Source: an uncultured Candidatus Saccharibacteria bacterium
GTDB taxonomy: Bacteria > Patescibacteriota > Dojkabacteria > J137
Length of the DNA: 64,000 nucleotides
Reading direction: 5' to 3'
NCBI GenBank assembly: GCA_964620955.1
Contig: CAZUKH010000001.1
Location: 190,810-254,809, forward strand
A program made the position numbers and the translations under genes. Shown piece by piece: positions 13,467-50,767 of the stretch. Numbering within the stretch: the first letter of the stretch is position 1; each line of letters starts with the position of its first letter. The notes under the pieces were generated by a model. That model did no database searches. It worked only from the letters and a program-made list of their open reading frames with translations, and was not told the origin of the DNA.

Positions 13467-13472
13467 AACTAA

Positions 13473-14261: not shown

Positions 14262-14263
14262 AC

Positions 14264-16129: not shown

Positions 16130-16131
16130 AA

Positions 16132-20459: not shown

Positions 20460-21611
20460 CTATGAATCTCTTCTCATTGGCATCACTAGGTGAACAAACT
20501 GTGGATCATCATTGTCTTTGAAAACCGATGCAGCTAATGGACCTTTGCTTTCAAAAATAATTTTGTCTCCCTCCAAGTGATTAACCACATCTTGAAGATA
20601 TCTCAAAGTATACGCTGTATTAAGATCTGTGTCAGCAGAAGCGTTTGTTACAGCAATATGAGTACTACCTTCACCTACATCCGTTACTACTGAGCTTAGT
20701 GTAATCTTTGATTGCTCTACATCAAAATCAAACAAAGTTTTATTTCCTAAATTACCTCTTGCGAATGTATTAACAATTTTTATCGCATTTTCTATTTCTT
20801 TCTTTTTTATTTCAAATGTAAAAGAATAATCATTAGGCATTATTCTTTTGTAATCTGGGTAAGGTCCTTCGAGCAAGCGCACGCTAAATTCGGTATCCTC
20901 AAATTTAAAAACTAGTTGTGAGTTAGTTTCGCTTAAATATACTTCAAGATTTTCTATATTTGGGTAGTCTGCCAATATTTTTACAAGCTCCATAAGGTAC
21001 CTGGCGGGCACAATTATTTCAGATTTATCTTTTGAAGTAGCTGCTTCTTTAACCTGAGAAATTCTTTTAGAAAGCCTAAACCCATCCAGCCCTACAAAGT
21101 TAACTTCAGATTTTTCTTGCGAAATTTCGAACAAAACTCCAGATTGTTGAATTCTACCTGAAGAAAGATCGGTAGAACAGGCAAAAAGCGTTTTATTCAT
21201 GCTTTTAATAAACTCAATACATGCAATTTTAAAAAGTAGTGTTTTTGCAGTTGGTAATACTGGGTACTCTTCTGCAGGCATTGTAGAAAATGTGCCTTTT
21301 GATGAGGCAGTAATTACATTAACACTATTTTCTTTTAATGATAGTGTAAGGCTTTCTCCATTTTCACTGCTTGCACTTACAAAGTCAGATATGTACTTTG
21401 CATTTACAGTAGTGCTTCCTGCAGTTTCTACCTTGCCAGGTATCCACATGTGAATCCCCATGTCCAGGTTTGTAGCAGATATCTCAACTGAAGACTTATC
21501 TACTTTTAGCATTACATTTGAAAGTATAGGAATATTTGGTTTTTGACTAACAGCTCTACTTGCGTATGTTAGTGCTTTAGATAATACTTTATGATTAATT
21601 TGTATTTCCAT
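20460..21611 (-). CDS. dnaN: DNA polymerase III beta sliding clamp
   Basis: 383 aa with a three-domain clamp pattern. The N-terminus (KALTYASRAVSQKPNIPILSNVMLKV) is typical of DnaN. Confidence 0.9.
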   Translation of the reverse strand: MEIQINHKVLSKALTYASRAVSQKPNIPILSNVMLKVDKSSVEISATNLDMGIHMWIPGKVETAGSTTVNAKYISDFVSASSENGESLTLSLKENSVNVITASSKGTFSTMPAEEYPVLPTAKTLLFKIACIEFIKSMNKTLFACSTDLSSGRIQQSGVLFEISQEKSEVNFVGLDGFRLSKRISQVKEAATSKDKSEIIVPARYLMELVKILADYPNIENLEVYLSETNSQLVFKFEDTEFSVRLLEGPYPDYKRIMPNDYSFTFEIKKKEIENAIKIVNTFARGNLGNKTLFDFDVEQSKITLSSVVTDVGEGSTHIAVTNASADTDLNTAYTLRYLQDVVNHLEGDKIIFESKGPLAASVFKDNDDPQFVHLVMPMRRDS

Positions 21612-22022
21612 ATCTATATATTTATTTAAATAGAAGTTAATAGTATTTAGGCAATGTATTTATGTGAGTAAATATTTGCTTTTCTTGATTATACCAGCTA
21701 AACAGTTATTGTACAGTTGTGGAAAACAGGGTGGAGTAAATATCTTTTGTTTTTGGTTATAGCCATATACACTATTGTATTTTTACAAAAACAGAGTGGA
21801 AAGTTTTTTGCTAAGTTTTGAATAACTTAATTAAGGTAAGTTTTTTAGAAAAACTTCCTATTATAGAACTTTCAACAATAAAAAATTTGTACGTTATTCC
21901 TAAGTAAAAGTATGTATCTAATCCTTTTTTTACTTACCCACATGTACACATAAGAGGTAATTAAATTTGACTAATATAAATAAGTTAGCTATATTTTTAC
22001 TATAAATATTATTTACAAAAGT

Positions 22023-22295
22023 ATGGCAATTGATGTTGAAAGTTTTTCTCCAAACGATCCTTCCAGTGTGAGTTCGCATGCATATAATCCACTTGAAACC
22101 GTTCCAGTATCACCTTATTCATATGAAGGCACTCCTGATAACCTAACAGACGTTGATGATGTTCTGAGAGGTGTTACTTCTTTGCAAGCAATAATAATGA
22201 TGAGAATAATGATTACTACAGGTACTTTTAACTCCACAGAACCGTATTGTCAAAGAATTCTAGAAATTGCACAGGGAGCAGTTTTAGAACAATAA
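22023..22295 (+). CDS. small acidic hypothetical protein (Lys-free)
   Basis: 90-aa ORF in the dnaA-dnaN spacer, on the opposite strand to its neighbours, locally higher GC, with no Lys in an otherwise Lys-rich proteome. Ends in LEQ. Confidence 0.25.
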   Translation: MAIDVESFSPNDPSSVSSHAYNPLETVPVSPYSYEGTPDNLTDVDDVLRGVTSLQAIIMMRIMITTGTFNSTEPYCQRILEIAQGAVLEQ

Positions 22296-27520: not shown

Positions 27521-28111
27521 ATGAGTAATAAGAACGTAACGGCAAGAACATTCAATCTTATTAAACCAGTAGAGCCACCTAAAAGTTACTGGGATAAAGT
27601 TTATGAGTGGGTAGTCTCAAGAGCAAAAGTTATTTTTATTGTTTGCGAAGTATTAATAGTTACAGCATTTGCTTTAAAAGTGGTTGTTGATAATTCGGCA
27701 AATTCACGAAAAGAAGTTTTTCAGGAGCTGAAAAACCAATCAGCATTTTATGAAGCTCAATATGAACAGGAAATAAGGAGGACACAAAGCAAAAGTTTTG
27801 AGTATTTAAAATTATGGAATGGCTCTTCTCAAATGGCAGAAATATTACAAGAGGTTTATGGTTACTTGCCAGCAAGTTCCAACGAAATTACAGTAAAGAT
27901 TGATAAAGATAGGTTACAAATTTATGGTACAGACGATCTTGAAGCGCTTAGGATTCTTGAGCAATCTTTAAAAAACTCAAGTACCTTTACTACAGCAGCA
28001 GTAGATACTTTAAGCCTTGAACAACAAGATTCACTTGAGGGCAGAGGCAGATACGTTTTAACGGCAATTATTTCAGAAAATAATTTAACAAGAAGTGATT
28101 TAGAATTATGA
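27521..28111 (+). CDS. PilN-like bitopic membrane protein (tentative)
   Basis: Short cytoplasmic N-terminus, a single TM, a coiled-coil, then a periplasmic domain. Translationally coupled to the next gene. Confidence 0.3.
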   Translation: MSNKNVTARTFNLIKPVEPPKSYWDKVYEWVVSRAKVIFIVCEVLIVTAFALKVVVDNSANSRKEVFQELKNQSAFYEAQYEQEIRRTQSKSFEYLKLWNGSSQMAEILQEVYGYLPASSNEITVKIDKDRLQIYGTDDLEALRILEQSLKNSSTFTTAAVDTLSLEQQDSLEGRGRYVLTAIISENNLTRSDLEL

Positions 28112-28779
28112 GTGACGAACAACGAATTAAAATTGGCACAGTAAAAAAATCAAGAAGCTTAAGGCTTAACGAATATTTGGATAATGCCAGAAACAAAAGT
28201 ATTTTTGTAATCGCTGTATCGATCCTTTTTACGATATTTTTTTTGGTTGTAGGTGTTATTCCAGCATTTCAATCGGTTTTTGACCAATCTGCTGAGAATC
28301 AAAAAATAGAAGAAGCAATAACAAAAATGCAAAAGAGAGTAGATGATATTAAAGTCCTTATAGATCAAATTAATTCAGATGCAAATGTGCTAGATTATTT
28401 TAATAAAGTCTTTCCTGGTCAAAGTGATCAAGAAGAAATTATGAAAGAGATGTTTGAACTTGCAGAGGAGAAAGGAGTTTTTATTAATAGTGTTACTTTT
28501 TCGGAGAACGAGAGAGCGGAGCCTTTAGTTATACAGTTTGGTACAGTACCACAAGTAATCTCTAAGCAAATTACGGTCAGCTTTGAGTCAAACAGGGTAA
28601 AGGCATTGGATTTTTTAAAATCTATAGAAAACAGTAGAAAAATTTTTAATGTAACAGATGTGACTTTAAGCCGAAAACTAGGAGAGTTACTTGAGAAAGC
28701 CGGCCCAGATAAAGAGTACGATTCAACTCTTGTAATTGAATATTTTTATTGGAGCGATGTAATTGAAGTAGTTGAATAA
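28108..28779 (+). CDS. PilO-like bitopic membrane protein (tentative)
   Basis: Same architecture as the upstream gene; 4-nt overlap with it. Confidence 0.3.
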   Translation: MSDEQRIKIGTVKKSRSLRLNEYLDNARNKSIFVIAVSILFTIFFLVVGVIPAFQSVFDQSAENQKIEEAITKMQKRVDDIKVLIDQINSDANVLDYFNKVFPGQSDQEEIMKEMFELAEEKGVFINSVTFSENERAEPLVIQFGTVPQVISKQITVSFESNRVKALDFLKSIENSRKIFNVTDVTLSRKLGELLEKAGPDKEYDSTLVIEYFYWSDVIEVVE

Positions 28780-28817
28780 AGTTTTGAGTAATGTAAAAAA
28801 ACTTTTAAAAATTTTAT

Positions 28818-29015
28818 ATGAATAATTTAAATAAAGCCTGGTCAATACTTATAATTGCTGGTGTAGTTTTTTTAATAGGTTTTGTGTTGTATTCACTGTG
28901 GCAGAGTTCTGTAAAAACGGGTTTTAACGAGGTAATAAATAATTTTGATACAAATCAACTTATAAACCAGCTTGTCGAAAATCATTTAAGAAGTGACCCA
29001 AATTTTTTAGAGTAG
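28818..29015 (+). CDS. small single-TM protein
   Basis: 65 aa with one hydrophobic helix. Confidence 0.25.
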   Translation: MNNLNKAWSILIIAGVVFLIGFVLYSLWQSSVKTGFNEVINNFDTNQLINQLVENHLRSDPNFLE

Positions 29016-29024: not shown

Positions 29025-31286
29025 TTAGTTACCTCTAAGTTTTGTGATATAAGAATCAGCGTCGTCTATAAGCACTTCCCTGGGTTTACTTCCATTTGCT
29101 GGTCCCACAACCCCTGCCTCTTCAAGCTCTTCTAGTAGTCTTGCGGCTCTGTTAAAACCTATACTTAACCTTCTTTGCAAGTATGATGAAGATGCTTTAC
29201 GAGCTTGTACAACAAGGTATATAGCCTGTTCCACCAAATCATCACCAGATATTTCTCCAAGTGCTTCCGCTGTCATTTCTTCAGGTGAGCGTATTTCGTT
29301 TCTAATTTGATCGATTGTTAAGTATTCGAGAGCATCTTCGGGTACCTGAGCCTTAATGAACTCAACAATGCTTGTAACTTCGCTTTGTTCTATAAATGCA
29401 CACTGAAGTCTTTCTGCTTTAGTTTTATCAGGTGCTTTATAAAGCAGATCCCCTGACCCCATAAGACTTTCGGCGCCTATTCGATCTAATATTACTCTGG
29501 AATCCGTTGAGCTTGTTACGCTCATTCCAACTCTGCCAGGAATATTAGCTTTAATTATGCCTGTAATAACATTAACAGAGGGTCTTTGAGTTGCGAGAAT
29601 AAGGTGTATTCCAACTGCTCTTGCCTTTTGGGCGAGCCTTACAATAGCGTTTTCTGCTTCTACTCGTCCTGCTGTCATCATCATATCTGCCATTTCATCA
29701 ATTACAACAACTATGTAAGGCATTGCTGCAAAACCTTTTTTACTATTGTAGCCTTCAATATTTCTTACCTGTTCTTTAGCAAGAATCGAATATCTTGTTT
29801 CCATTTCTTTTACAGTCCATTTTAACCAGTCGACAACTTGTTCCATTTGGGTAATTACCGGAGTAATAAGGTGGGGAATTCCGTTGTAATCCATAAGTTC
29901 TACCTGCTTAGGGTCTACAAGAATTAACTTTAGTTCGTCTGGTGTTTTCTTCATTATTAATGAAGTTATAAAAGTGTTTGTAAGTACAGATTTTCCAGAA
30001 CCTGTAGCCCCTGCAATAAGCAAATGTGGCATTTTGTAAATATTACCTATTACTGCTTCTCCATGTATATTTTTTCCAATAGGAACAGGAAGTACATAGT
30101 CTGTATTTCGCATTTTTTCTGAAGTCATTAACTCTTTAATTCGCACTAAATCTCTACTAGATCTTGGGATTTCAACACCTAGGTAAGAGGTTTCAGGTAT
30201 TGTTTCGACTCTTACGGCTTTCGAATCAACTCCTAAAGCAAGAGCGATATTTTCGTTTAAATTTGCTACTTTAGAAACCTTTATTCCTAAAGGTATGCTT
30301 AATGCGTATTGAATAACCGAAGGGCCAACAAAAGCTTGTTCTACTTTTGCATCTATGTCAAAGCTCAAAAGGATTTCTTCGATTATTCCTGCTTTTTCTT
30401 TTATATCTGTTTCTTTTGTGCTTGGCTTTTCGGGAGGTAATAAAAGACTTGCTGGTGGAAGTGTCCAGCCAGGGAACTTTAGTGTTTCCTGGCTAAGTCC
30501 ATCATCTCCTAAATCAACGTGTTTGTAGTTAATGCTCATTTGTTCTGCTGGTTTAATAATTTTTAGGGGAGATTCTGGGTATTGTCTTTCCAATGTATCA
30601 TCAGCTGACTTGGTTTGCATTGCGAGTTTTTCGGCTTCTCGTTTTTTTATTAAGTCATTAAAATCTCCAAAACGTGATCTTGGTTGTTTAAACTCATCTA
30701 TCTCTTCAGATTGTTCACCGGTAAGCTGATCTATTGGAGTAAATAGTGCTTTTACAATTTTGAATACTTTGTTAATAAATTTTCCTGCAAGCTGTGTAAG
30801 TGAAGAAAGAGAAACTGAAAGTGCAATTGGCGTTAGTATAAGTATAGACAACAAAAGAATAATTTGAGTTGCTGGCTGGGTTGGTATTTTATCGCCTAGC
30901 AGGTCAACTACAATGTAATATCCAACGCGACCTCCAGCAGCGCTTATAGGGTCTGCCTTTAAAATAGTCCATTGATCTGTATTAAGAGTAGAAATAAATG
31001 CAGGTACAAGAAAGGTTAGTGCTGTAAGTGAAATGATATTGGGTAGTTTTAAAAACCTACTTTCTGCACCTAGTAATTTTATGCCAATAACTCCAAGTGT
31101 TATTGCTGTTAATAATGTAGAATTGTTAAAAAGACTTCGTGCTTGGCTAAATATGTTTTGATCGTTTGGGTTTACACTTAAATAGGCAATTGCAAAAAAG
31201 ATTGAAAAAAGCAGGCAAAGTAACCCAAAGAATGTTGAAGTTTCTTTGCTATCGTAAGTAATTTTTTTTCTTTTTCTCCTTCCCAT
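29025..31286 (-). CDS. ftsK: DNA translocase FtsK/SpoIIIE
   Basis: N-terminal TM domain, Walker A GATGSGKSV, ATQRPS motif and C-terminal gamma (winged-helix) domain. Confidence 0.9.
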   Translation of the reverse strand: MGRRKRKKITYDSKETSTFFGLLCLLFSIFFAIAYLSVNPNDQNIFSQARSLFNNSTLLTAITLGVIGIKLLGAESRFLKLPNIISLTALTFLVPAFISTLNTDQWTILKADPISAAGGRVGYYIVVDLLGDKIPTQPATQIILLLSILILTPIALSVSLSSLTQLAGKFINKVFKIVKALFTPIDQLTGEQSEEIDEFKQPRSRFGDFNDLIKKREAEKLAMQTKSADDTLERQYPESPLKIIKPAEQMSINYKHVDLGDDGLSQETLKFPGWTLPPASLLLPPEKPSTKETDIKEKAGIIEEILLSFDIDAKVEQAFVGPSVIQYALSIPLGIKVSKVANLNENIALALGVDSKAVRVETIPETSYLGVEIPRSSRDLVRIKELMTSEKMRNTDYVLPVPIGKNIHGEAVIGNIYKMPHLLIAGATGSGKSVLTNTFITSLIMKKTPDELKLILVDPKQVELMDYNGIPHLITPVITQMEQVVDWLKWTVKEMETRYSILAKEQVRNIEGYNSKKGFAAMPYIVVVIDEMADMMMTAGRVEAENAIVRLAQKARAVGIHLILATQRPSVNVITGIIKANIPGRVGMSVTSSTDSRVILDRIGAESLMGSGDLLYKAPDKTKAERLQCAFIEQSEVTSIVEFIKAQVPEDALEYLTIDQIRNEIRSPEEMTAEALGEISGDDLVEQAIYLVVQARKASSSYLQRRLSIGFNRAARLLEELEEAGVVGPANGSKPREVLIDDADSYITKLRGN

Positions 31287-32963: not shown

Positions 32964-35168
32964 ATGAGTGAAAATAAACACAAAGTCATTGTTTTCTTGC
33001 TATCTTTATTCCTAGTTTTAGTTATAGGTTCTGTAGTTATTGGTGGATATATTGCCTTAAAAAATGCTTCAGATAACTCAGAACAGTCTGATTTTAGCGT
33101 TGCTGGTGTTAATGACATTTTTAATATTCGAAGCTTTGGGGCTACCCCTAACGATGGGACTGAAGATACTAATGCAATACAATCAGCAGTTAATGCAGCT
33201 GTAGCCGTAGGGGGTTCTGTTTATGTGCCGGCAGGGATTTATAGAAGTGGAACTATAGATATTGACGATAATATAACGATATATGGAGATCCAAACTATG
33301 TGAGTATAATTGAGATGAAAGATAATAATGGAGGACCTGCAAGCTCCCCTCAATCTGCAAGATATTTGATTAGACCAAAAAAATACCTCACTAGGTGGGT
33401 TTATCAAAACAACCAAGAGCTCCCTAACTACACTAAAAATGTGGTAATTCGAGACCTTAAACTTGTTGGAAGAAGTGCAAACCAATGGGATGGCGGGCCA
33501 TTACCCGAAGGAAGCTCTTCTATGCATGGTATCGGAATGATAGCAGCGTACAATTGGAAACTAGAAAGAGTATGGGCAGAAGACTTTGATGGAGATGGAT
33601 TTTATATTGCAGGTCGTGACTTAGGACCAGGGTCTTTTTACAACGAACTTTTAGACTGTGTTGCAACAAAAAACTTGCGTAACGGAATAACTATAATCCA
33701 TGGTGACTACAACTTAATTAGAGGTTGTAAGGTATATGAAAACCAGCAAGGAATTTTGCCTGGTCCTAAGTATTCTCCAAATATGTATAAGGCAGCAGAA
33801 ATAGATTTTGAGCCTAATAGAGTAGAGCAAACTGTTAATTACAATGTTGTTGAAAACAACGAACTTGGTCCTGGACCAGGTGACGGATTTGGTATGACAC
33901 GTCCAGGTCCGCAACAAAAAGGGAATGTTATAAGAAATAATACTTTTAAAGATTTCAAACGCTACCAGTTTGCAACATGGGTTGAAGAAATTGATTCAAA
34001 TAGAATTCAGGGAAATACCTTTATCGCTACTACTTCTGACTCAGTAGCAACACATATGGTAATTGGGGATGCGAAAAACACTTGTGTTATTGGCAATACT
34101 TTTACCGGTAATACTTCACAAAATGGCTTGCTTGTAAGGTCCGATGCAGTAAACACATCGTTTGTTAAAAACACATTTAATTTAAGCGGCACTTCTGATG
34201 GAGCAGCAATAAGAATTAACGTTGATACCTCTGGTACTCCTGTAGGGACACAATTTTTTCAAAACTCGGGTACATTAAGAATTATTGGTAATGGAACTTC
34301 CGCCCAATCACAAACACAACCAGCAAATTGCCCTGATGTGTATACTGTACCTGATGCGGGTAATATTGGAGATACTTCAACCCCACCAACAGAAGACCCA
34401 CCCGCAGAGGATCCCGTAACACCAGAAGATCCTGTTGTTGAAGATCCTGTCGATCCTCCTCCAGCTACAACTGTCCCACAAGCACCTTACAATAATGCTT
34501 CGGCATTTCAGCTACCTGGTAAAATTGAAGCTGAGGATTATGACGTTGGAGGCGAAGGAGTTTCTTACTCAGATAAAACCACGGGAAATGATTGGTCTGC
34601 TTACCGATCTGACGGAGTTGATATCATATCTAATACACCTGCAAGCAATCAAAACATGGTAATTTTGTTTCAAAGGACTGAATGGATTGAATACACAGTA
34701 ACTTCTACTGCTACAACTACCTATGACTTTAAAGCAAAACTAGGTACTGTCGGAACAAGTTCAGGTAAGTTAAAGGTCTATGTAAATGATCAAATTGCGG
34801 GCACTTTAGATGTGCCCCAAATGACAAATTGGCGGCAAGTAGTCTTAGCAAATCCAATAAGTCTTCAGCTCCCGGCTGGGCAGAGTGTAATACGGCTTGA
34901 GGCAGATGCATCAAACTTTATAGATTTGGACTATATTGAGTTTACAACAAAAACAACAACATCAAACCCAGAGGCTGCTCTGCAGTGTAAAGCTGATATC
35001 AATAAAGATAATTCTGTAAACCTTCAGGACTTTGCATTATTCGCAGCTTCTTGGAATAAAAATTTAGCTGATTGCTCTAAAGATATATCGGGCGAAGATT
35101 GTAAGTATAATCTTCAAGATTTTGCAATATTTGCCTCTGCTTATGGAAAGCAAGGTGTATGTAATTAA
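32964..35168 (+). CDS. secreted right-handed beta-helix (pectate-lyase-superfamily) enzyme with CBM6-like module and C-terminal dockerin-like repeats
   Basis: Signal anchor. N-terminal FGATPNDGTEDTNAIQSAVNAA...GGSVYVPAGIY (pectate lyase superfamily). A P/T/E/D linker. A CBM6-like module (IEAEDYDVGGEGVSYSD...). A C-terminal pair of Ca-binding-type loops (DINKDNSVNLQD...FALFA and DISGEDCKYNLQD...FAIFA), as in dockerin type I. Confidence 0.6.
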   Translation: MSENKHKVIVFLLSLFLVLVIGSVVIGGYIALKNASDNSEQSDFSVAGVNDIFNIRSFGATPNDGTEDTNAIQSAVNAAVAVGGSVYVPAGIYRSGTIDIDDNITIYGDPNYVSIIEMKDNNGGPASSPQSARYLIRPKKYLTRWVYQNNQELPNYTKNVVIRDLKLVGRSANQWDGGPLPEGSSSMHGIGMIAAYNWKLERVWAEDFDGDGFYIAGRDLGPGSFYNELLDCVATKNLRNGITIIHGDYNLIRGCKVYENQQGILPGPKYSPNMYKAAEIDFEPNRVEQTVNYNVVENNELGPGPGDGFGMTRPGPQQKGNVIRNNTFKDFKRYQFATWVEEIDSNRIQGNTFIATTSDSVATHMVIGDAKNTCVIGNTFTGNTSQNGLLVRSDAVNTSFVKNTFNLSGTSDGAAIRINVDTSGTPVGTQFFQNSGTLRIIGNGTSAQSQTQPANCPDVYTVPDAGNIGDTSTPPTEDPPAEDPVTPEDPVVEDPVDPPPATTVPQAPYNNASAFQLPGKIEAEDYDVGGEGVSYSDKTTGNDWSAYRSDGVDIISNTPASNQNMVILFQRTEWIEYTVTSTATTTYDFKAKLGTVGTSSGKLKVYVNDQIAGTLDVPQMTNWRQVVLANPISLQLPAGQSVIRLEADASNFIDLDYIEFTTKTTTSNPEAALQCKADINKDNSVNLQDFALFAASWNKNLADCSKDISGEDCKYNLQDFAIFASAYGKQGVCN

Positions 35169-35181
35169 TTTATAAAAAACT

Positions 35182-37818
35182 ATGAGAAAAGTAAAAAAAA
35201 TAGGTTTCCAGTCTTTAGTTATTTATAATGTAATAGCCTTAATGTTCTTTGCTTCAGGGCTTCTTTCGCTTGTAAGCTATTTGCCAGGGTCTCAAGAGTC
35301 TAAAGATGTACAGGTGAGTGGGGAGCTTTCAAGTGTTGGGACAGCAAAGCCAATTGCCAGTAATGCTCACCCAAACCTCTATTTTAACCAGGCTGAACTT
35401 GAAGCAATAAGAAAAGCAGTATTAGTGGATAAATATCCCCAGTATGCTGTCAATACTTTTAATGCAATAAAAGGAGTTCAACCAGTTAATAAGCCTAGCA
35501 CGGTTGAAACAACTAACTTCGAACCTAATAAAAACTACCATTACAATATTATTGTAGGACTAACAAGACAAAATTTTCAAGCAACATGGAGTTACGCTAT
35601 TGAACCGACACAAGCAAAGGGTCAAAAGCTTAAAGAGTCTTTGCTTAGCTGGACTTCAAGAATGCCAGGAACGACGTATAATGCACTAAATCTTTGGATG
35701 TATGATGTTCATCAAGGAGCATTTATGCACTTTGCACTTGCTTGGATGTATGATCTGTTGTACCCAACTGGGTTGTTAACTGATACGGAAAAACAAAGGT
35801 TAGATCAATGGTTTTCTGAAGTCGCAATTTTAGCTCAAAGTGATTGGGATAAGTTTGTATCTCATAGAAACGATTATCCAGATTTATATGCCGTAACATA
35901 TGAAGGATCACGAAGAGAATCGTATTTCAATAAATCAGCTTTTGACATGGGAGGGGCTGTAGTTTGCGCTTTAGTTTCGCACAACCAGGCAGCTGTAAAT
36001 AGTACAATACAAAGTGGTATTTCCGATAACAACTTTTTAATTACTACAAGTAGCAATCAGTATAGAGACCTCAAGAATTATATAGCTGGTTCTATTTTTT
36101 CTGACGGGTATACTTATGACGGGTTTCACAGATACTATGGATTTGACCCAGTAGCCGGTTATAAAGGTGAAAATGCGGGCCAAGGTCAACAATATCATTT
36201 TTTTATGTTAATGCCTTTAGCGTTAGCTGCCGAGGCAGCAACTCATAATGGATTTAATGCATGGGAATACAAAGATAAAGCTTTGCTTAAAGCTTATGTA
36301 AAAGGCTATCCTTGGGCAGGAAGTGCCTGGAGAGATAGTAAATCTGGGTCTGCAGACTATAATCATCTTCCTTTTTACTGGCTTTTATACAGAAGGTTCC
36401 CAACTAACAGTACAATTAAATCGGCAGTTCAACAATCAGGAGCTACATCTGACTCTTACCCCTATGCTATAACTAACACTGAAGAGCTATGGGGCGTACT
36501 TGGAGATTTAACTGTATCTGGTACTACACCTCCACCAACACAAGATCCACCAACACAAGATCCTCCACCAGTTCAAGATCCAGTAACACCACCAACTCAA
36601 GATCCACCACCTGCGACGGTGCCACAGGCACCGTACAATAGGAGCACACCATGGGAAGTGCCAGGAAAAGTTGAAGCTGAAGATTATGACTTAGGAGGCC
36701 AGGGTATTTCTTATTCAGATAAGTCCACCGACAACGAATGGGATGCCTACAGGGCCGATGGGGTGGATATTATTTCGAATGCATCCGCCAGCAATCAAAA
36801 CATGGTAATACTGTTCCAGAGAACAGAGTGGATGGAGTACACAGTTACATCGACTACTGCAGCCAGCTATAACTTAAAGGCTAAGCTTGGTACAGTTGCA
36901 ACTACAGGGCTTGTAAAAGTTTATATAAATGATCAACTAGTTGGAACACTCCAGGTTCCTCAGATGGCTGGATGGAGGCAAGTAGTTATAACAGACCCTC
37001 TAACCATACAATTACCGCAAGGTCAAAGTGTTATAAAAATTGAAGCAGATGCATCAAATTTTATAGATTTTGATTATTTTGAAATTACATCAAACCAGGT
37101 AACTACACCTCCGCCCGCTGCTATTACTCAATCGGCGTATAACCGGACTTCTTCTTGGCCAATTGGAGAGATTGAAGCTGAGAATTTTGATGAGGGAGGG
37201 CAGGACGTTGCTTACTCAGATGCAGATAATGTAAACCAATATGGGCAAATTTATAGAACAGAAGGTGTTGATGTACGCCAGTTAAACTCCGGCTACGTTG
37301 TAGGATATATACAACCCGGAGAGTGGCTTGAGTATACTGTAAATGTACCTAGTGACGGTAACTATAGGTTTTTTACCGATGCTGCAACGACATACTCAAA
37401 CAGGTCGTTTAGCATACTACTAAACGGAACGGTAAAAGGCAATATACAGGTGCCAGTGACTGGAAGCTGGAATACTTTTGAAAGAGCTTACTCACAGTAC
37501 ACGAATCTTACTGCTGGTGATTATGTTTTAAGAATACAAACAGATTCTGCAGAAGCGTGGTTTGACCTTGATAAAATTGGAATTGAAAAACAAGCGACCT
37601 CAACACCTGTTACTTCAGAAGCATGTAAAGCAGATATAAATAAAGATGGGAATGTAAATCTTGTAGATTTCGCACTTTTTGCAACGTATTGGAACAAACA
37701 ACTTCCAGACTGCTCTATGGACATAGCACCAAGCCTTAAATCTTGCTGGATAGACCTTGCAGACTTTGCAGTTTTTGCGAAACATTACGGAAAACAGAAT
37801 GTATGCCAGTCTAATTAA
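35182..37818 (+). CDS. secreted (alpha/alpha)-toroid polysaccharide-lyase-like enzyme with two CBM6-like modules and C-terminal dockerin-like repeats
   Basis: N-terminal domain resembles alginate-lyase / heparinase II/III type (tentative). PT linker. Two AEDYD/AENFD...GG...YSD CBM6-like modules. C-terminal DINKDGNVNLVDFALFA plus a second repeat. Confidence 0.5.
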   Translation: MRKVKKIGFQSLVIYNVIALMFFASGLLSLVSYLPGSQESKDVQVSGELSSVGTAKPIASNAHPNLYFNQAELEAIRKAVLVDKYPQYAVNTFNAIKGVQPVNKPSTVETTNFEPNKNYHYNIIVGLTRQNFQATWSYAIEPTQAKGQKLKESLLSWTSRMPGTTYNALNLWMYDVHQGAFMHFALAWMYDLLYPTGLLTDTEKQRLDQWFSEVAILAQSDWDKFVSHRNDYPDLYAVTYEGSRRESYFNKSAFDMGGAVVCALVSHNQAAVNSTIQSGISDNNFLITTSSNQYRDLKNYIAGSIFSDGYTYDGFHRYYGFDPVAGYKGENAGQGQQYHFFMLMPLALAAEAATHNGFNAWEYKDKALLKAYVKGYPWAGSAWRDSKSGSADYNHLPFYWLLYRRFPTNSTIKSAVQQSGATSDSYPYAITNTEELWGVLGDLTVSGTTPPPTQDPPTQDPPPVQDPVTPPTQDPPPATVPQAPYNRSTPWEVPGKVEAEDYDLGGQGISYSDKSTDNEWDAYRADGVDIISNASASNQNMVILFQRTEWMEYTVTSTTAASYNLKAKLGTVATTGLVKVYINDQLVGTLQVPQMAGWRQVVITDPLTIQLPQGQSVIKIEADASNFIDFDYFEITSNQVTTPPPAAITQSAYNRTSSWPIGEIEAENFDEGGQDVAYSDADNVNQYGQIYRTEGVDVRQLNSGYVVGYIQPGEWLEYTVNVPSDGNYRFFTDAATTYSNRSFSILLNGTVKGNIQVPVTGSWNTFERAYSQYTNLTAGDYVLRIQTDSAEAWFDLDKIGIEKQATSTPVTSEACKADINKDGNVNLVDFALFATYWNKQLPDCSMDIAPSLKSCWIDLADFAVFAKHYGKQNVCQSN

Positions 37819-37845
37819 TAATTTTTAAAATAAGATAAAAATACA

Positions 37846-38433
37846 ATGAAAAATTCAGTAAGGTTTTTAATCATAAGTGCAGTATTTTTAACTGTAGCAG
37901 GCTTGGTTGTTTGGGTTTCTGCAATTAGTAATAAAAGCAGTGCAGAAGGTTTTAAAGACGCATCAGTCTCAGATTTTTTTGATTCTCAAAGTGTATTAAG
38001 TATTTTTGAAAACGAAGTAGACGAAGGCGAGATTTTTTCACAAAAAACGTTTATAGATTTTGCACTTGAGGGTAATACTTTGGAAGTTAGAGCCAGGAGC
38101 GGGGATAATAAATTGCGTGCAGTTGAATTAAAAATACAATTTGATCCTATAGTTGTTTTGCCGGGTCAAATTGAAACAGGCAATGCATTTGATCTTTATC
38201 TTAACCCTGAAGTTGATTTGGAAAATGGAGTTATAAAGATAGTGGCTGCTTTACCAAACGATCTTAGTGCAGAGGGCAGGCTCGTCGCAAAGGTACCACT
38301 TACAAAGCTTACTTCCGATACAAGCGTGATTAGGTTGCTTTCGAGTGAAGATTTGGGTAAAGAAAATGTTTCTAAAATAGTTTTGGATTCTTCTACACAA
38401 CTTTCTCTTTACCCCGCGGTGGTTGAGTTTTAG
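37846..38433 (+). CDS. small secreted cohesin-like domain protein (tentative)
   Basis: Signal anchor plus a ~150-aa beta-rich domain. AVELKIQFDPIVV and GVIKIVAAL...EGRLVAKVPLTKL resemble the cohesin core patterns (fel.YDpnvLe, g.i.f.f). Lies directly downstream of two dockerin-bearing genes. Confidence 0.4.
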   Translation: MKNSVRFLIISAVFLTVAGLVVWVSAISNKSSAEGFKDASVSDFFDSQSVLSIFENEVDEGEIFSQKTFIDFALEGNTLEVRARSGDNKLRAVELKIQFDPIVVLPGQIETGNAFDLYLNPEVDLENGVIKIVAALPNDLSAEGRLVAKVPLTKLTSDTSVIRLLSSEDLGKENVSKIVLDSSTQLSLYPAVVEF

Positions 38434-38520: not shown

Positions 38521-38745
38521 ATGCCAAAATTTCTTAAAAACTATTTTTGGGATGTAGAATTCTCTTTAATGAATAAGGATAGAGATAGAATTTTTATTGC
38601 CGAAAGGATATTAAACCTTGGTAGAATTGAAGGCTTTTCCTGGCTGGTTAATAACTACGGTATTGAAGAACTGCTCAACATTACTAAGATAAACCCGAAT
38701 ATTAGCAATACCGCTAAGTCATTACTTAAGGCTTTGATTAGCTGA
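38521..38745 (+). CDS. small conserved partner protein of AbiEii-family nucleotidyltransferase (putative antitoxin-like)
   Basis: 74 aa with YFWDVEF...IAERILNLGRIEGFSWLVNNYGIEEL. 11-nt gap to the downstream AbiEii-like gene. Confidence 0.35.
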   Translation: MPKFLKNYFWDVEFSLMNKDRDRIFIAERILNLGRIEGFSWLVNNYGIEELLNITKINPNISNTAKSLLKALIS

Positions 38746-38756
38746 TATAATCACGA

Positions 38757-39389
38757 ATGTATTTTCCTAATGTTCTCCCAAGCTACTCGCATAAGGTACT
38801 TGATTTTATTATGCTAAATGAACATTTTTCAAGCTTTTACCTAGCAGGTGGAACTGCATTGGCTTTACAAATTGGCCACAGAGAATCTATAGATTTAGAT
38901 TTTTTTACTCAAGAAAATTTTAATGCAAACATTATATCTTCTTTTACTAAATTCCCTTTTGTTGCAAATACCTTGCAAAACAATAATATTAGCTTAATTG
39001 CAAACGATACTAAAGTTACCTTTTTATACTGGCCTTTTCCTAAGCTTAAAAATTTAGTTACGATTGGGAATGTGAGGCTTTTAAATCCACAAGATATTGG
39101 GTTATTAAAGCTATTGGCTCTTCAAGGCAGGCATACACGAAAGGACATAATTGACCTGTATTTTATAGATAAAGAGGTAATAACTTTTGAATCACTTTTT
39201 GAATTATTTGAGAAATATTACCCTAAGGAGAGTTTTAATATTTTTGGGAGTGTAAAAGAGTTATTTGATGACTCACTTTTACAAAAGCAACCAATGCCAA
39301 AGATGTTTAAAGAAGTAGAGTTCGAACTGTGTTTAGATTATGTTCAAAAAAAAGTTGCCGCGTGCTTAAAAGGGCTTATTAAATTGTAA
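38757..39389 (+). CDS. nucleotidyltransferase, AbiEii/AbiGii toxin family
   Basis: FYLAGGTALALQIGHRESIDLDFF is the AbiEii family signature. 210 aa. Confidence 0.6.
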   Translation: MYFPNVLPSYSHKVLDFIMLNEHFSSFYLAGGTALALQIGHRESIDLDFFTQENFNANIISSFTKFPFVANTLQNNNISLIANDTKVTFLYWPFPKLKNLVTIGNVRLLNPQDIGLLKLLALQGRHTRKDIIDLYFIDKEVITFESLFELFEKYYPKESFNIFGSVKELFDDSLLQKQPMPKMFKEVEFELCLDYVQKKVAACLKGLIKL

Positions 39390-39433: not shown

Positions 39434-40627
39434 TTATTGCTCGTTATGTTGTTTACTAGTACTTTTAAGTATTTCCTCTAAAAACAAAAGAAGATTAAAT
39501 CCATCTTCTATGCTTCCAATCTCCAAGTCTGAATGTCTTCCTCTCCCATAACGATTTTCAGCGAATGAAACAATATGTGTGTGTGGTACTCCTGCTAAAG
39601 TAAGTAATGTAGCAAAGTTATGCCCAAGTCCTCCTAAGTAACTTTCACCATCGGGATAAAATAGAGTTAGGACATCTGGACCATAAAAGATGGGATTAGG
39701 CAAAGCTTTCAATAGAGAAGTAATTGCTATTGAGTTTGGATCAGAATTGCGATTTGCATTGTATCCATTGTTATAAGTAAACCCACGCGCTCTTGGATTT
39801 GACTTAGAAAGTTCTGCTAAAGCTAGTTGAATTTGCGCACCTTTTAGTGATTGACTTAAAATAATTGAATGATTTGGCTCTCCATCAGCATTGGTATAGT
39901 GTACTTGAGCCTGGTATTGTAACAATATATCTGGAATAATAAGTTCTTGGAGCGGTACTATAGCCCTTATGCAAGGCAGAATACTTGTTGCGATTATTCC
40001 TGATGCGTTCCCTGTTGGTTCTAGGTCTAGCGCTAACAACTGAGCACGGACTTGCCTAGCATATAGTATGCTACCAAGTCCGGCTACCTCTTCATCGGTA
40101 GAAACTATAAAAGTAAAGTCAGTTTGAGAGTTTAAATAAGCAATTTCATGCATAAATAAAATAATTGTTGAAAGTTGCAGTTTCATATCAATTACCCCTC
40201 TAGCAATAATTTGATCTCCATTTGTATAAACTAAATTAGTAGAAAGATTTGAGGTAAAACCTACAGTATCTAAATGTGCATGTATAAGAATATCAGTTTG
40301 ATAGTTGCCGCGGGTAAATTCCTGTGGATTAATATTGTTATGGTCGGTTAATCGACTTCGAATGTTTGAAACTAAATAAAGTGGAGATTGTTTTGGTCCT
40401 TTTTTAGAATAAATAAAATCCCGAGGTATTGAATTTTCAAAAAAAGCTAATGCGTCGGGCCAGTCCTTACCCTGATTTACTCTTGTGTCCATAGAGAGAA
40501 TCAACTTACATGTGTCTAGTAAAAGTTGCCTTTTTAGATCAGGATCATTTATCCATTGTTCTGTATTGGTAAGCCGTAAGACTAATTGGTCAGGGTCAAT
40601 ACTTCGTGGATCGTGTTTTTCGATCAT
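39434..40627 (-). CDS. M20-family metallopeptidase/deacylase-like protein
   Basis: HAHLDTVGF (HxDxV), RGVIDMK (GxxDxK) and STDEEVAG (DEE) metal-ligand motifs. Confidence 0.5.
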   Translation of the reverse strand: MIEKHDPRSIDPDQLVLRLTNTEQWINDPDLKRQLLLDTCKLILSMDTRVNQGKDWPDALAFFENSIPRDFIYSKKGPKQSPLYLVSNIRSRLTDHNNINPQEFTRGNYQTDILIHAHLDTVGFTSNLSTNLVYTNGDQIIARGVIDMKLQLSTIILFMHEIAYLNSQTDFTFIVSTDEEVAGLGSILYARQVRAQLLALDLEPTGNASGIIATSILPCIRAIVPLQELIIPDILLQYQAQVHYTNADGEPNHSIILSQSLKGAQIQLALAELSKSNPRARGFTYNNGYNANRNSDPNSIAITSLLKALPNPIFYGPDVLTLFYPDGESYLGGLGHNFATLLTLAGVPHTHIVSFAENRYGRGRHSDLEIGSIEDGFNLLLFLEEILKSTSKQHNEQ

Positions 40628-40754: not shown

Positions 40755-41882
40755 TTACTTAGCAAGCTTTTCGTACACAATCAAGTGATCAAACTGGCCA
40801 AACTCACTTAAAAGTCCAGTTTCGTTTTCAATTTTCCACGGATCTCTAATAATATAATCATTTTCAATCTTTTTAGTAACAACCACCCAGTGAGGTATTT
40901 GGGTAAATGATACTGAGTTATAGCCAGCAATTACAGCATTTCCATTACTAAGTTCATAGTCTAATCGTTCAAAACTTTTTTCGTTAAAGTATGCAGATTT
41001 AAGAGTTAAGTCGGTTGCGATGTTCGGTATAATATTCCACCGAACATCGCAACCTTCCAAGTAGCCAAGGTTATCTTTGTTTTTAAGTTGTGTGTTTAGC
41101 TGCAATGGGTCTATTTCGGTTCCATATGAGTTAATCATCATAGATAAAGCAGAAATAGCACAGCCAGCACTACTTATTGTATTGTCTATACATGCTCCAA
41201 GTATTTGGCTACCCCACAAAGGGTTTCGCTGGCTTTGTTGAACAATGTTGTTGAAGTCAGCAGCAGCAGTAGAATAGTCTTTAAGCTTTTCTTTTGCAAT
41301 TTCTTTTGTATTTAGATCTAAAGAGTATATTTCTGGTTTAATTGGTTTGTTATTTTCAAAATATAATTTATTAAAAAAATCCCATTCTAAATATGTTTTT
41401 CCTCCATAGCCTAGTGAAGGATTTAATATGTTGTCTGTTTCATGCTCTTTTTCGGAATAAATTAACTCCTTAATGTTTGACTGTAGGTTATATGTCCAAA
41501 GCTCAAAAGGATATATTTGAATAAATGCAAAAGAATTGCTGTCGGGTGCCCAAACGGGGGAGGTAATATATCTAAGGCTTTCTTCAATTACCCTTGGCTG
41601 AAGGTTAGAACCATTAATGTTTACAGTCCATAAAGTCGTTTTGCGCATACCTAAGTCTGGACTTGTTAAGAAAACATACTTTGTTTTGTCAGGAGAGAGT
41701 ACTACCTGGTTTTCAAAAACTAGTTCTTCACTTGGAATAATTGAATTTAGCTCTGTTATACTTACAAACTTTGTATGTGTATATAATTGGTCGTTATTGT
41801 ATACCCAAAGCCCAATCCCGGCTGCTGTGAGTAGCATAAATACGTAAATCAAATATCTTATCTTCATATTTAATTTTAGCAC
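40755..41882 (-). CDS. secreted protein with PD40/TolB-like beta-propeller repeats and C-terminal C39-like cysteine peptidase domain
   Basis: Signal anchor, WAPDSNSFAF-type PD40 repeats, and GCAISALSMMINSYG matching the C39-like catalytic Cys region. Confidence 0.45.
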   Translation of the reverse strand: MLKLNMKIRYLIYVFMLLTAAGIGLWVYNNDQLYTHTKFVSITELNSIIPSEELVFENQVVLSPDKTKYVFLTSPDLGMRKTTLWTVNINGSNLQPRVIEESLRYITSPVWAPDSNSFAFIQIYPFELWTYNLQSNIKELIYSEKEHETDNILNPSLGYGGKTYLEWDFFNKLYFENNKPIKPEIYSLDLNTKEIAKEKLKDYSTAAADFNNIVQQSQRNPLWGSQILGACIDNTISSAGCAISALSMMINSYGTEIDPLQLNTQLKNKDNLGYLEGCDVRWNIIPNIATDLTLKSAYFNEKSFERLDYELSNGNAVIAGYNSVSFTQIPHWVVVTKKIENDYIIRDPWKIENETGLLSEFGQFDHLIVYEKLAK

Positions 41883-50348: not shown

Positions 50349-50406
50349 CTTAGATTTATGTTACCTAAACAAGATAAGCTAAATCTTAAATGATTTCAAA
50401 GGGGCT

Positions 50407-50494
50407 CGGAGAGTGAGGGGTTCGAACCCTCGTGACGCTTGCGCATCCAGCCGTTTTCGAGACGGAGCCGTTATGACCGCTTCGGTAACTCTCC
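50407..50494 (-). tRNA. tRNA-Ser (anticodon CGA)
   Basis: Manual fold: acceptor GGAGAGT/ACTCTCC, T-arm GAGGG-TTCGAAC-CCCTC, anticodon loop CTCGAAA, long variable arm. No encoded CCA. Confidence 0.75.
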
Positions 50495-50767
50495 ATTTAT
50501 AGTATCGAACATGTTCTTTAGTAAGAACTGTATTCGTTCACGACCCTTTCCAGCTTTCAGGAAGCTTTCTTCCTTTTGAGCATCAAGTTTAACAACAAAG
50601 CCTCGTATATAGACCACTCCATATGGTAAACCCTTGGCGGTAAATGGAACAAGGCCTGAGCTGTGTTGAGACAGCCTTCTTTTAAAATTTACCGTAAGAA
50701 CAGTATAAAACGTTTTTAATTTATGATTATATAAAATATATGCATACTCCTTAAGAGATTTTAACAT
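50471..50767 (-). CDS. GIY-YIG nuclease-domain small protein
   Basis: YAYILYN...KTFYTVLTVNFKRRLSQHSSG matches GIY...YIG..R. Its 3' end overlaps the tRNA-Ser 5' end by 24 nt. Confidence 0.6.
   Translation of the reverse strand: MLKSLKEYAYILYNHKLKTFYTVLTVNFKRRLSQHSSGLVPFTAKGLPYGVVYIRGFVVKLDAQKEESFLKAGKGRERIQFLLKNMFDTINGELPKRS

Follow-up and report, generated by a model that had tools for sequence, protein, structure and literature searches.

Three consecutive open reading frames on the + strand of the stretch of DNA analysed here (64 kb, hereafter the window) encode two large multidomain proteins that each end in a dockerin-like module (P1 and P2) and a small membrane-anchored protein with a single cohesin (P3). 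The intergenic gaps are 13 and 27 nt, and the coordinates given for all three genes in the first-pass annotation of this DNA were exact. No terminator-like site was found between the genes, which are probably co-transcribed; promoter and terminator scans returned nothing that exceeds shuffled expectation. P3 is the sole cohesin, and the P1 and P2 tails are the sole two dockerin-like modules, in the 64-kb window. The features discussed below are as follows.

27521..29015, + strand: conserved three-gene operon of g1 (196 aa), g2 (223 aa, PilO-like) and g3 (65 aa, transmembrane protein)
32964..35168, + strand: P1, 734 aa; N-terminal hydrophobic segment, right-handed beta-helix, Pro/Asp/Glu-rich linker, CBM6, dockerin-like tail
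32985..33059, + strand: P1 N-terminal hydrophobic segment, aa 8-32 (Kyte-Doolittle 19-residue mean 3.2)
33117..34313, + strand: P1 beta-helix catalytic-type region, aa ~52-450, from Pfam stretches
34608..34946, + strand: P1 CBM6, aa 549-661 (Pfam CBM_6 PF03422, 8e-11)
34986..35165, + strand: P1 dockerin-like module, aa 675-734; loop 1 at 34995-35030, degenerate loop 2 at 35082-35120
35182..37818, + strand: P2, 878 aa; N-terminal hydrophobic segment, orphan domain of ~400 aa, Pro-rich linker, two CBM6, dockerin-like tail
35314..36531, + strand: P2 N-terminal domain, aa ~45-450, with a borderline PF05426 match only
36694..37101, + strand: P2 CBM6-1, ~aa 505-640 (boundaries approximate), the second CBM_6 stretch, paralogous to the P1 CBM6
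37261..37590, + strand: P2 CBM6-2, aa 694-803, the best Pfam CBM_6 stretch
37624..37806, + strand: P2 dockerin-like module, aa 815-875; loop 1 at 37633-37668, degenerate loop 2 at 37720-37764
37846..38433, + strand: P3, 195 aa, membrane-anchored single cohesin
37849..37929, + strand: P3 N-terminal transmembrane helix, aa 2-28 (AF2 helix; hydropathy 2.5)
37930..38043, + strand: P3 low-complexity stalk, aa 29-66, predicted disordered (pLDDT <50 over residues 30-66)
38044..38430, + strand: P3 cohesin domain, aa 67-195, nine beta-strands in the model

The N-terminal hydrophobic segments of P1 and P2 are 24-25 residues long; that of P1, the sole such stretch in the protein (Kyte-Doolittle), may be either an export signal or a signal-anchor. 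The region that follows in P1 matches Pect-lyase_RHGA_epim (PF12708; residues 52-162, 8.1e-14), Beta_helix (PF13229; 189-329, 4.7e-9) and NosD (318-406), and its N-terminal cap finds GH87 alpha-1,3-glucanase, pectate lyase, AlgE4 epimerase, exopolygalacturonase and iota-carrageenase in the PDB at E-values of 3e-5 to 2e-3. These matches point to a beta-helix protein of the pectate-lyase superfamily, of glycosidase or lyase type, in agreement with the first-pass annotation. Its placing of CBM6 modules in both proteins likewise holds, with CBM_6 scores above the cutoff of 28.9 bits in P1 (42.8 bits) and in P2 (108.7 bits across two stretches, 3.1e-31), where the CBM6-2 region also has overlapping CBM_35 and CBM_35_2 matches. 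Residues 488-677 of P1 and 465-652 of P2 are 65% identical over 190 aa including the linker (BLASTP, E=4e-80). The N-terminal domain of P2 had been described as an alpha/alpha-toroid lyase, a description that we do not uphold: its sole basis is the borderline Alginate_lyase match (PF05426; aa 301-373, 7.5e-5, 22.8 bits against a cutoff of 22.2), and phmmer against the PDB returned no meaningful relative by sequence. The domain is possibly polysaccharide-lyase-like, no relatives of P2 were found in the genome and metagenome contigs scanned, and no cellulase family was detected in P1 or P2 with Pfam, NCBIfam or the PDB.

The genome had been called CPR-like, and the nearest relatives of the window's FtsK are Candidatus Dojkabacteria. 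Since an Rfam gathering-threshold scan found no ribosomal RNA gene in the window, this taxonomy rests on FtsK similarity and synteny. The GC3 of the cassette (0.25-0.29) equals the window background (0.26 +/- 0.03), and recent horizontal transfer or assembly chimerism was rejected on this ground; the value speaks for a cassette native to the Ca. Dojkabacteria genome.

The C-terminal modules of P1 and P2 and the P3 domain

Type I dockerins consist of two repeats of ~22 residues, each made of a 12-residue Ca2+ loop (ligands at positions 1, 3, 5, 9 and 12) and a helix. P1 and P2 end in homologous modules of ~60 aa with 63% identity, in both of which the first loop reads D-I-N-K-D-(N/G)-x-V-N-L-x-D-F-A-L-F-A and is canonical, with D-N-D-N-D at the five ligand positions; like the dockerin F-hand, it shows the pattern D-x-N-x-D-x-x-V-N-x-x-D followed by a helix, with no helix before it. 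The first-pass annotation had described a duplicated Ca-binding-loop module, which is correct for the first loop and the duplication of the helix; the second loop, however, is no copy of the first, having 13 residues in P1 (DISGEDCKYNLQD) and 15 in P2 (DIAPSLKSCWIDLAD) instead of 12, with most of the acidic ligand positions missing and one Cys inside. The helix of the second repeat, DFAxFA, is kept in both tails, so that in effect each has one and a half repeats. Four cysteines lie at residues 675, 704, 713 and 733 of P1 and 815, 844, 855 and 875 of P2. Flanking cysteines had been counted as a type I match; to our knowledge they are no trait of classical type I dockerins, and we treat them here as a variant trait.

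The search with Pfam Dockerin_1 (PF00404) that the first-pass annotation had proposed as a check fell short of the cutoff of 22.9 bits, P2 scoring 18.0 bits (0.0034) over repeat 1 only (817-838) and P1 giving no match at E<=1. The NCBIfam "GC-type dockerin domain" (dockerin_GC, NF041540) aligns with both tails over model positions 1-63 of 67, at 22.5 bits (1.1e-4) for P1 and 20.9 bits (3.5e-4) for P2 against a cutoff of 29. The best phmmer match of the P1 tail in the PDB is the dockerin 2y3n_B (E=0.007), and a tail profile (A4) spans both repeats of 4wi0_B (1.6e-4; profile positions 7-58 of 62) and 2y3n_B (6.2e-4; positions 2-58), with further matches to 2b59, 4u3s, 5nrm, 5nrk, 3kcp and others; dockerin-bearing chains make up 15 of the 24 PDB matches listed. 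The nearest metagenomic relative of the first tail repeat, L086, passes Dockerin_1 (27.7 vs 22.9 bits). A word-index homologue search with the dockerin alignment found nothing. Given the profile matches to solved dockerins over both repeats and the transitive link to a Pfam-passing metagenomic module, the P1 and P2 tails are, on sequence grounds, probably divergent dockerins.

P3 had been described as a secreted domain of ~150 aa; it is in fact longer, and its hydrophobic N-terminal membrane-anchor helix has an equivalent in all aligned members of the family, across which the stalk region varies in length and sequence. P3 is held in the cytoplasmic membrane through this helix, and a disordered stalk of ~40 residues presents its single cohesin. 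As with the tails, the proposed check against the curated model (Pfam Cohesin, PF00963) left P3 below the cutoff (15.0 vs 24.1 bits, E=0.029, residues 85-153). Five relatives, linked to P3 by phmmer at E=1e-7 to 4e-4, exceed it (P0005 28.7, P0007 28.1, P0008 27.0, the L007 copy 25.8 and P0006 24.6 bits), with alignments over most of the model, and the membership of P3 is thus transitive. Ten of the 12 PDB matches of the P3-family profile are cohesins. The modelled domain is the nine-stranded beta-sandwich (jelly-roll) expected of a cohesin and is superimposable on solved cohesins. By two independent methods its top fold matches are exclusively cohesins, and other beta-sandwiches follow only after a clear drop. 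This fold evidence and the Pfam-passing relatives together make a strong case for the first-pass call of P3 as a cohesin. The family comprises about six clusters at 50% identity in a set of 1.84 billion representatives; word-index homologue searches returned P3 itself only with the protein and five proteins only with its domain profile (A3).

It remains a fact against any anchoring system that no window protein attains a curated Dockerin or Cohesin cutoff. The likeness could on this account be superficial, the tails being generic EF-hand or disulfide-stabilised peptides and P3 a generic beta-sandwich, with no cohesin-dockerin system at all. Generic EF-hand proteins do score like dockerins with the tail profile (e.g., sarcoplasmic Ca-binding protein, 2.2e-4), and a low-confidence AF2 model of the P2 tail (pLDDT 50.8, from a 2-sequence alignment) has its best Foldseek matches, insignificant at E 0.29, among calmodulin-type EF-hands, with no dockerins. 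The element order in that model (loop-helix, short helix, loop-helix) is nevertheless compatible with a dockerin, the loop lacks the preceding helix of true EF-hands, and the tails occupy the typical dockerin place at the C-terminus of CBM-bearing enzymes. With these points added to the fold matches and Pfam-passing relatives of P3 and to the tail alignments with solved dockerins, we regard a merely superficial likeness as very improbable.

Related loci and the possible partners of P3

The P3 gene lies ~9 kb from the retained g1-g3 operon, between GT2 and g370, in a variable slot of a conserved backbone that also houses a toxin-antitoxin pair. In the window, g1-g2-g3 abuts the 3' end of FtsK, exactly where five relatives carry a P3-family cohesin gene. 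These five (L002, L007, L008, L009 and L092, of eight informative genomes) have that gene directly after g1-g2(PilO-like)-g3, usually with a large CarboxypepD_reg surface protein downstream and with no detectable dockerin nearby; in L002, the g2 orthologue has a match to Pfam PilO (2.2e-6). The proteins encoded directly downstream have 2141 aa in L002, 2221 aa in L007 and 814 aa in L092. As candidate dockerin carriers the giant proteins of L002 and L007 were rejected, giving no regex, HMM or Pfam match. This arrangement suggests that the modules may be true homologues yet not partners: P3 would belong to a surface apparatus with g1, the PilO-like g2, g3 and the large CarboxypepD_reg protein, from which a rearrangement would have split it and set it down after P1-P2 by chance. 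The closest relative of P3, P0005, sits in the g1-g2-g3 context, as this reading would have it. The slot is rearrangement-prone and homologues of P1 and P2 are missing from all 45 related loci, so that the adjacency could indeed be accidental.

Several observations weigh on the other side. In about 17 related Dojkabacteria loci, g1-g2(-g3) lies against FtsK and the cohesin gene is missing at that place; the cohesin is thus no obligatory member of that operon, and we know of no function that links cohesins with PilO-like proteins. In two other low-GC genomes, L001 and L004, the PilO-like operon is absent from the cohesin locus and a gene with a tail-like C-terminal module lies 31 and 46 nt upstream of the P3-family gene; this module aligns with the window tail by hhalign (probability 94.7%, E=5.6e-8), and the L004 tail aligns with essentially the full dockerin_GC model at 18.3 bits, again below the cutoff of 29 (the P1, P2 and L004 alignments cover positions 1-63 or 1-65). 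The order of dockerin-like-module gene and then cohesin gene is thereby found in three of the eight informative genomes, and its recurrence supports a functional link. A rough, post hoc estimate of the chance that P3 would land on the same strand right after the only two dockerin-like genes among ~65 genes is a few percent at most. We consider non-partnership a possible but somewhat unlikely reading. The upstream proteins of L001 and L004 are membrane proteins of ~300 aa; the idea that they combine a cohesin with a dockerin found support for the C-terminal tail only, their N-terminal domain showing no significant likeness to cohesins (hhalign probability 5%; E=0.008 with Pfam; nothing in the PDB), and the third gene of L001 was rejected as another cohesin (hhalign probability 7%).

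The tails could instead be functional docking or adhesion modules whose partner is not P3, whether a cohesin elsewhere in the 255-kb contig or the genome, a surface component of a host or partner cell, or the organism's own envelope. Our view of the genome spans 64 kb, and one gene of L006, the closest relative by FtsK, has this Cys-rich tail at its end. Related dockerins (VNLxDFALFA..W) occur on CAZyme-type proteins at six metagenomic loci, whose organisms have a GC content of 49-55%. A cohesin HMM showed no cohesin-like gene close to them, but it is narrow and would miss other types, which makes this absence weak evidence. In a further CPR class, the cultivated Saccharibacterium Southlakia epibionticum has an essential cell-envelope protein with a dockerin domain, SEML1_0315, for which the authors speculate that host-cell glycans are the target, and for which the account mentions neither a cohesin partner nor a cohesin gene next to it (PMC10633639); the resemblance is drawn here by description only. 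Against a partner other than P3 stand the cohesin gene 27 nt downstream and the recurrence of the same order in L001 and L004, and we judge this alternative unlikely.

Known systems and a candidate anchoring role

Taking these lines of evidence together, we give roughly even odds (about 0.5) to the reading that the three proteins make up an anchoring system of cohesin-dockerin type that is minimal, monovalent and native to a Ca. Dojkabacteria genome. P1 and P2 would be exported via their N-terminal hydrophobic segments, and the intact first Ca2+ loop-helix of each tail would bind the P3 cohesin. Two Cys pairs may stand in for the second Ca2+ site that has been lost, with one pair holding the N-terminus to the C-terminus and the other closing loop 2, and a tail stapled in this way would be biased towards one binding mode, in contrast to the dual mode of symmetric dockerins. 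Because P3 has a single cohesin, it would hold one enzyme at a time, placing one CBM6-targeted enzyme per P3 molecule at the cell surface, where the products of polysaccharide breakdown would be kept near a cell of very limited metabolism. If the hydrophobic segments of P1 and P2 are uncleaved anchors, the cohesin tether would be redundant. The first-pass annotation had called the cassette mini-cellulosome-like. Its observations are confirmed in part and its module assignments stand, but this part of its interpretation is overstated: a single-cohesin P3 would be an anchor rather than an enzyme-clustering scaffoldin, the 64-kb window holds no multi-cohesin scaffoldin, and neither P1 nor P2 is a dockerin-bearing cellulase or hemicellulase of a recognised GH family.

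Single-cohesin surface anchors that bind individual dockerin-bearing enzymes are known from Clostridium (Acetivibrio) thermocellum, namely OlpA (Cthe_3080) and OlpC (Cthe_0452), which are SLH-attached to a Gram-positive wall and serve within an extensive cellulosome network that has dozens of dockerin enzymes. P3 differs in having an N-terminal membrane helix, two visible candidate ligands and 9-14% sequence identity only with their cohesins, and the tails of its candidate ligands differ as well, with four Cys and a second Ca loop that is degenerate. Non-cellulosomal cohesin-dockerin modules occur in the glycoside-hydrolase toxin complexes of Clostridium perfringens (2vo8, 2jh2, 2w1n), and a non-cellulosomal cohesin in Archaeoglobus fulgidus (2xdh). 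The C. perfringens cohesins are internal modules of large multidomain enzymes, unlike a small dedicated membrane anchor such as P3, and none of these non-cellulosomal systems is known to us from CPR. As a precedent for a "mini" system, very reduced and with one cohesin, that of Cellulosilyticum lentocellum comes nearest; in it the adjacent single-cohesin and single-dockerin genes of ClcC/ClcD (Clole_2599/Clole_2598) encode proteins that form a complex in vitro and enhance cellulase activity (PMC13487519). Its host is a cellulolytic Firmicute and its proteins are annotated by standard models, whereas the candidate cassette of the window has a CPR host, modules below curated cutoffs and enzymes that are not cellulases. 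Since dockerin domains in CPR (PMC10633639) and minimal or non-cellulosomal pairs (PMC13487519) are already known, the principle is not new.

More tentatively, and in our view rather unlikely as a general statement, Dojkabacteria and related CPR may own a divergent cohesin-dockerin system in which membrane-anchored single cohesins act as general surface sockets and a disulfide-stapled dockerin with one Ca2+ site plugs in varied cargo. The cargo may be the two CBM6-bearing polysaccharide-degrading enzymes here and the ~300-aa membrane protein in L001 and L004. If so, an episymbiont of minimal metabolism would have a dedicated means of keeping glycan-attacking enzymes where it touches a host or partner cell or the exopolysaccharide of that cell.

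Much of bacterial diversity belongs to the CPR/Patescibacteria, whose genomes are tiny and most of which grow attached to other cells, and little is known of how their surfaces are organised. The cassette has the look of a much reduced relative of the docking machinery of cellulosomes. If the pairing is not functional, it would be one more case of the widespread non-cellulosomal cohesin-like and dockerin-like modules. If it is functional, P1, P2 and P3 would be three concrete proteins for expression and testing, a Cys-stapled dockerin with one intact Ca2+ loop would serve as a natural experiment on how little of a dockerin binding requires and may yield a compact new affinity pair, P1 and P2 would indicate which polysaccharides a Dojkabacterium feeds on or attacks, and the cohesin-dockerin principle would work in CPR in a highly reduced, membrane-anchored and monovalent form.

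The cassette and its genomic slot

We read P1, P2 and P3 as a monovalent anchoring system in which two CBM6-bearing enzyme-type proteins with dockerin-like C-terminal tails (P1 and P2) would be held by the cohesin protein encoded next downstream (P3), a reading to which we assign a probability of about 0.5. The three ORFs lie exactly where the first-pass annotation had placed them, all on the + strand:

32964-35168, + strand: P1, ORF of 734 aa
35182-37818, + strand: P2, ORF of 878 aa
37846-38433, + strand: P3, ORF of 195 aa

Because the intergenic gaps measure 13 nt (P1-P2) and 27 nt (P2-P3) on the same strand and no terminator-like site lies between the genes, co-transcription is plausible; a promoter/terminator scan gave no signal above shuffled expectation. 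At 0.25-0.29, the GC3 of P1, P2 and P3 is the same as the background of the window (0.26 +/- 0.03), so that by its composition the cassette is native to the genome, neither recently imported nor chimeric.

The genome had been suspected to be CPR-like, and its FtsK (29025-31286) is indeed 55-66% identical over the full length to proteins from Candidatus Dojkabacteria (WS6) MAGs, several of which carry the label “uncultured Saccharibacteria” in TPA assemblies. About 25 related loci keep a backbone of the form DnaA ... g1-g2(PilO-like)-g3-[+/- cohesin, +/- large surface protein]-FtsK-MTase-(GT2)-[variable slot]-g370-g253-g239, where g1-g3 form a three-gene operon and g370, g253 and g239 are backbone genes of these loci. 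The variable slot of the window holds the cassette together with a DUF6922/AbiEii toxin-antitoxin pair and two peptidases, neither of which is matched at this position in most relatives:

38521-39389, directly 3' of P3: DUF6922 (74 aa, 9.2e-11) and AbiEii nucleotidyltransferase toxin (210 aa, 1.9e-13), a type IV toxin-antitoxin-like pair
39434-40627, - strand: M20-family peptidase
40755-41882, - strand: membrane-anchored C39-like peptidase, 375 aa (Peptidase_C39_2, 2.1e-11)

Elsewhere in the window, ARAGORN calls a 90-nt tRNA-Ser(CGA) at 50406-50495 (- strand) that Rfam does not report at gathering score, and the partial tRNA match given by Rfam at 62853-62909 (- strand; model positions 10-63, 36 bits) has no counterpart among the ARAGORN calls. 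For the ORFs at 14264-16129 (+ strand, 621 aa) and 60495-62003 (+ strand, 502 aa), Pfam gave nothing at E<=1e-5.

Enzyme parts and tails of P1 and P2

The earlier description of P1 as a pectate-lyase-superfamily beta-helix agrees with its Pfam matches to the pectate-lyase/rhamnogalacturonase-type group (PF12708, 8.1e-14; Beta_helix, 4.7e-9; NosD), which accompany one CBM6 (8e-11). Among solved structures, its beta-helix cap resembles GH87 alpha-1,3-glucanase, pectate lyase, AlgE4 epimerase, exopolygalacturonase and iota-carrageenase, which are polysaccharide-active beta-helix proteins unrelated to one another. P2 does carry the two CBM6 modules ascribed to it (Pfam, 3.1e-31), and “alpha/alpha-toroid lyase” is a putative label only for its N-terminal domain of about 400 aa, which has no PDB relative by sequence; the sole enzyme match is a borderline one to Alginate_lyase (22.8 bits, Pfam cutoff 22.2). 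The catalytic regions of P1 and P2 are unrelated; what the two proteins have in common is a stretch in which a Pro-rich linker, a CBM6 and the C-terminal tail are joined, with about 65% identity (E=4e-80), which indicates module duplication or shuffling between the neighboring genes. No homolog of P1 or P2 was found in any of 45 related loci, nor a close relative in the two large collections scanned.

The tails (P1 aa 675-734 and P2 aa 815-875) share 63% identity, and the 64-kb window has no further module of this kind. The first-pass annotation had described a duplicated Ca-binding loop, and half of this description stands: in both tails loop 1 is canonical, D-I-N-K-D-(N/G)-x-V-N-L-x-D followed by the helix F-A-L-F-A, and the helix of repeat 2 is kept (DFA[IV]FA), but loop 2 has 13 or 15 residues, lacks most acidic ligand positions and contains one Cys. 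The helix ahead of loop 1 is absent in both, as in the dockerin “F-hand” arrangement. Four Cys are conserved in the tails, where four of the five cysteines of P2 fall; one disulfide may clasp the tail ends and a second may close loop 2.

The Pfam search put forward as a check on the tails stayed below threshold, with Dockerin_1 matching repeat 1 of P2 only, at 18.0 bits against a cutoff of 22.9, and NCBIfam dockerin_GC covered its whole model at 22.5 and 20.9 bits (cutoff 29). A single tail sequence searched against the PDB matched mostly dockerins (best E=0.007), and a profile of three tail sequences, including a fragment from the closest relative L006, aligned with solved dockerins across both repeats (best 4wi0_B, 1.6e-4; 2y3n_B, 6.2e-4); dockerin-bearing chains made up 15 of the 24 matches listed, the remainder being mostly generic EF-hand proteins. 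The nearest metagenomic relative of repeat 1, on contig L086, passes Dockerin_1 at 27.7 bits, and modules related to the tails are borne on beta-helix, GH88 and CBM35/CBM96 proteins in metagenomic loci. Because the AF2 model of the tail is poor (pLDDT 50.8) and its fold search returned only insignificant calmodulin-type matches, the assignment of the tails as dockerins draws on sequence and is probable.

Dockerins with the same VNLxDFALFA..W signature occur on metagenome contigs of 49-55% GC (L086-L091), from organisms of much higher GC, and are N-terminal in GH88-type proteins (L088-L090) but C-terminal in a beta-helix protein (L087) and in a 1426-aa M12-peptidase/CBM35/CBM96 protein (L091); their occurrence there shows a subtype that, judged by this signature, is widespread outside Firmicutes cellulosomes. 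L006, the closest relative by FtsK (66%), has a gene convergent with FtsK and truncated at the contig end (11281-11445, - strand), whose product closes with a Cys-rich dockerin of the type seen in P1 and P2 (…CGPKDYNKDGRLNLSDFANFASKYNKANCN), except that here it is loop 2 that is canonical.

The P3 cohesin and its neighborhoods

The small cohesin-like protein proposed after the two enzymes holds up through its family rather than its own sequence: P3 itself scores only 15.0 bits against Pfam Cohesin (cutoff 24.1), so that the check suggested earlier fails on P3 itself, and its single-sequence search of the PDB gave no match. When 1.84 billion representatives were scanned exhaustively with HMMER, only six clusters reached E<=1e-3, and P0009 among them is spurious. 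The true relatives, 170-200 aa long, share a layout in which a hydrophobic helix at the N-terminus is followed by a low-complexity stalk that varies among them and by a beta domain of about 120-130 aa. Since five relatives pass the Pfam Cohesin cutoff (24.6-28.7 bits, over most of the model) and 10 of the 12 PDB matches of the family profile are cohesins, P3 is a genuine cohesin, though a divergent one, tethered to the membrane; with a single cohesin domain, it is an anchor rather than a scaffoldin. That the cohesin and dockerin resemblances are superficial would fit the subthreshold scores of P3 and of the tails, and is made highly improbable by the profile matches of both.

The cohesin gene directly follows g1-g2-g3 in five loci (L002, L007, L008, L009 and L092, including P0005, the closest to P3), where the next gene usually encodes a large CarboxypepD_reg surface/membrane protein (814-2221 aa) and no dockerin is detectable near the cohesin gene. 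The window keeps g1-g3, but they adjoin the FtsK 3' end, and the cohesin gene lies 9 kb off, after P1-P2.

Operons of the g1-g3 type and associated giant proteins
27521-28111, window: g1
28108-28779, window: g2
28818-29015, window: g3
8529-9988, L002: operon
20571-22045, L007: operon
13477-14916, L008: operon
6386-7983, L092: operon
10625-17050, + strand, L002: giant protein, 2141 aa, N-terminal TM segment
13259-19924, - strand, L007: giant protein, 2221 aa, N-terminal TM segment

This three-gene operon, conserved near dnaA across Ca. Dojkabacteria, encodes a ~195-aa, a ~215-aa PilO-like and a 65-127-aa TM protein, followed in some genomes by the cohesin gene and an 814-2221-aa CarboxypepD_reg protein; in the segments inspected, none of its neighbors codes for a pilus ATPase or a pilin. 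By Pfam, the L002 giant protein has CarboxypepD_reg domains, weak phage tail-tip-like FNIII/Ig matches and a further match near the C-terminus; that of L007 has several hydrophobic segments near the C-terminus and a run of X that marks an assembly gap.

These neighborhoods favor the main rival, that P3 belongs with the apparatus of g1-g3 and the large protein and was moved to where it now lies by a rearrangement. In many further relatives g1-g2(-g3) occurs without any cohesin gene, so the cohesin gene is an accessory neighbor of the operon, and two more low-GC contigs of unassigned taxonomy, L001 and L004, have the gene for a membrane-anchored protein of about 300 aa lying 31 and 46 nt, respectively, upstream of a P3-family cohesin gene. 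The C-terminal module of these upstream proteins is homologous to the window tail (hhalign probability 94.7%, E=5.6e-8; dockerin_GC 0.0023 for L004). A tail-bearing gene thus precedes the cohesin gene in three of eight informative genomes, and of the comparative evidence this recurrent order argues most strongly for a functional link; with it, we consider the rearrangement scenario doubtful. The same order counts against a partner other than P3 for the P1 and P2 tails, which we hold to be improbable. The upstream proteins themselves (L001 9112-9969; L004 9034-9954) are 31% identical, have a dockerin-like C-terminus, and share the YRAM(E/V)L.IQ motif and a pair of conserved Cys in a central domain that is rich in beta structure and resembles cohesins only weakly (Pfam E=0.008; hhalign probability 5%).

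A putative anchoring system in Dojkabacteria

Non-cellulosomal cohesin and dockerin modules are already widespread, and adjacent minimal pairs have been documented experimentally in C. lentocellum ClcC/ClcD (PMC13487519); the single-cohesin anchors OlpA and OlpC are structural neighbors of P3. The cassette differs from known systems in its lineage, in the N-terminal membrane anchor of P3, in its rare and divergent cohesin family and in a Cys-rich tail with one canonical Ca loop only. The first-pass view that such systems are not described in this kind of genome agrees with the literature searched, in which no paired cohesin-dockerin cassette in CPR was found. A cultivated Saccharibacterium is reported to have an essential envelope protein with a dockerin domain (PMC10633639), and Dojkabacteria were named in one study as probable degraders of carbohydrates (PMC7038595). 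The analysis shows the gene order, its recurrence, the native composition and, with the tails as probable dockerins, the domain identities. In the anchoring system that we propose, P3 would be fixed in the membrane, with its single cohesin held out on a flexible stalk; P1 and P2 would be exported and then captured via their tails in a Ca2+-dependent way, chiefly by the first loop-helix, whose Ca2+ site is intact, while their CBM6 modules would target polysaccharide.
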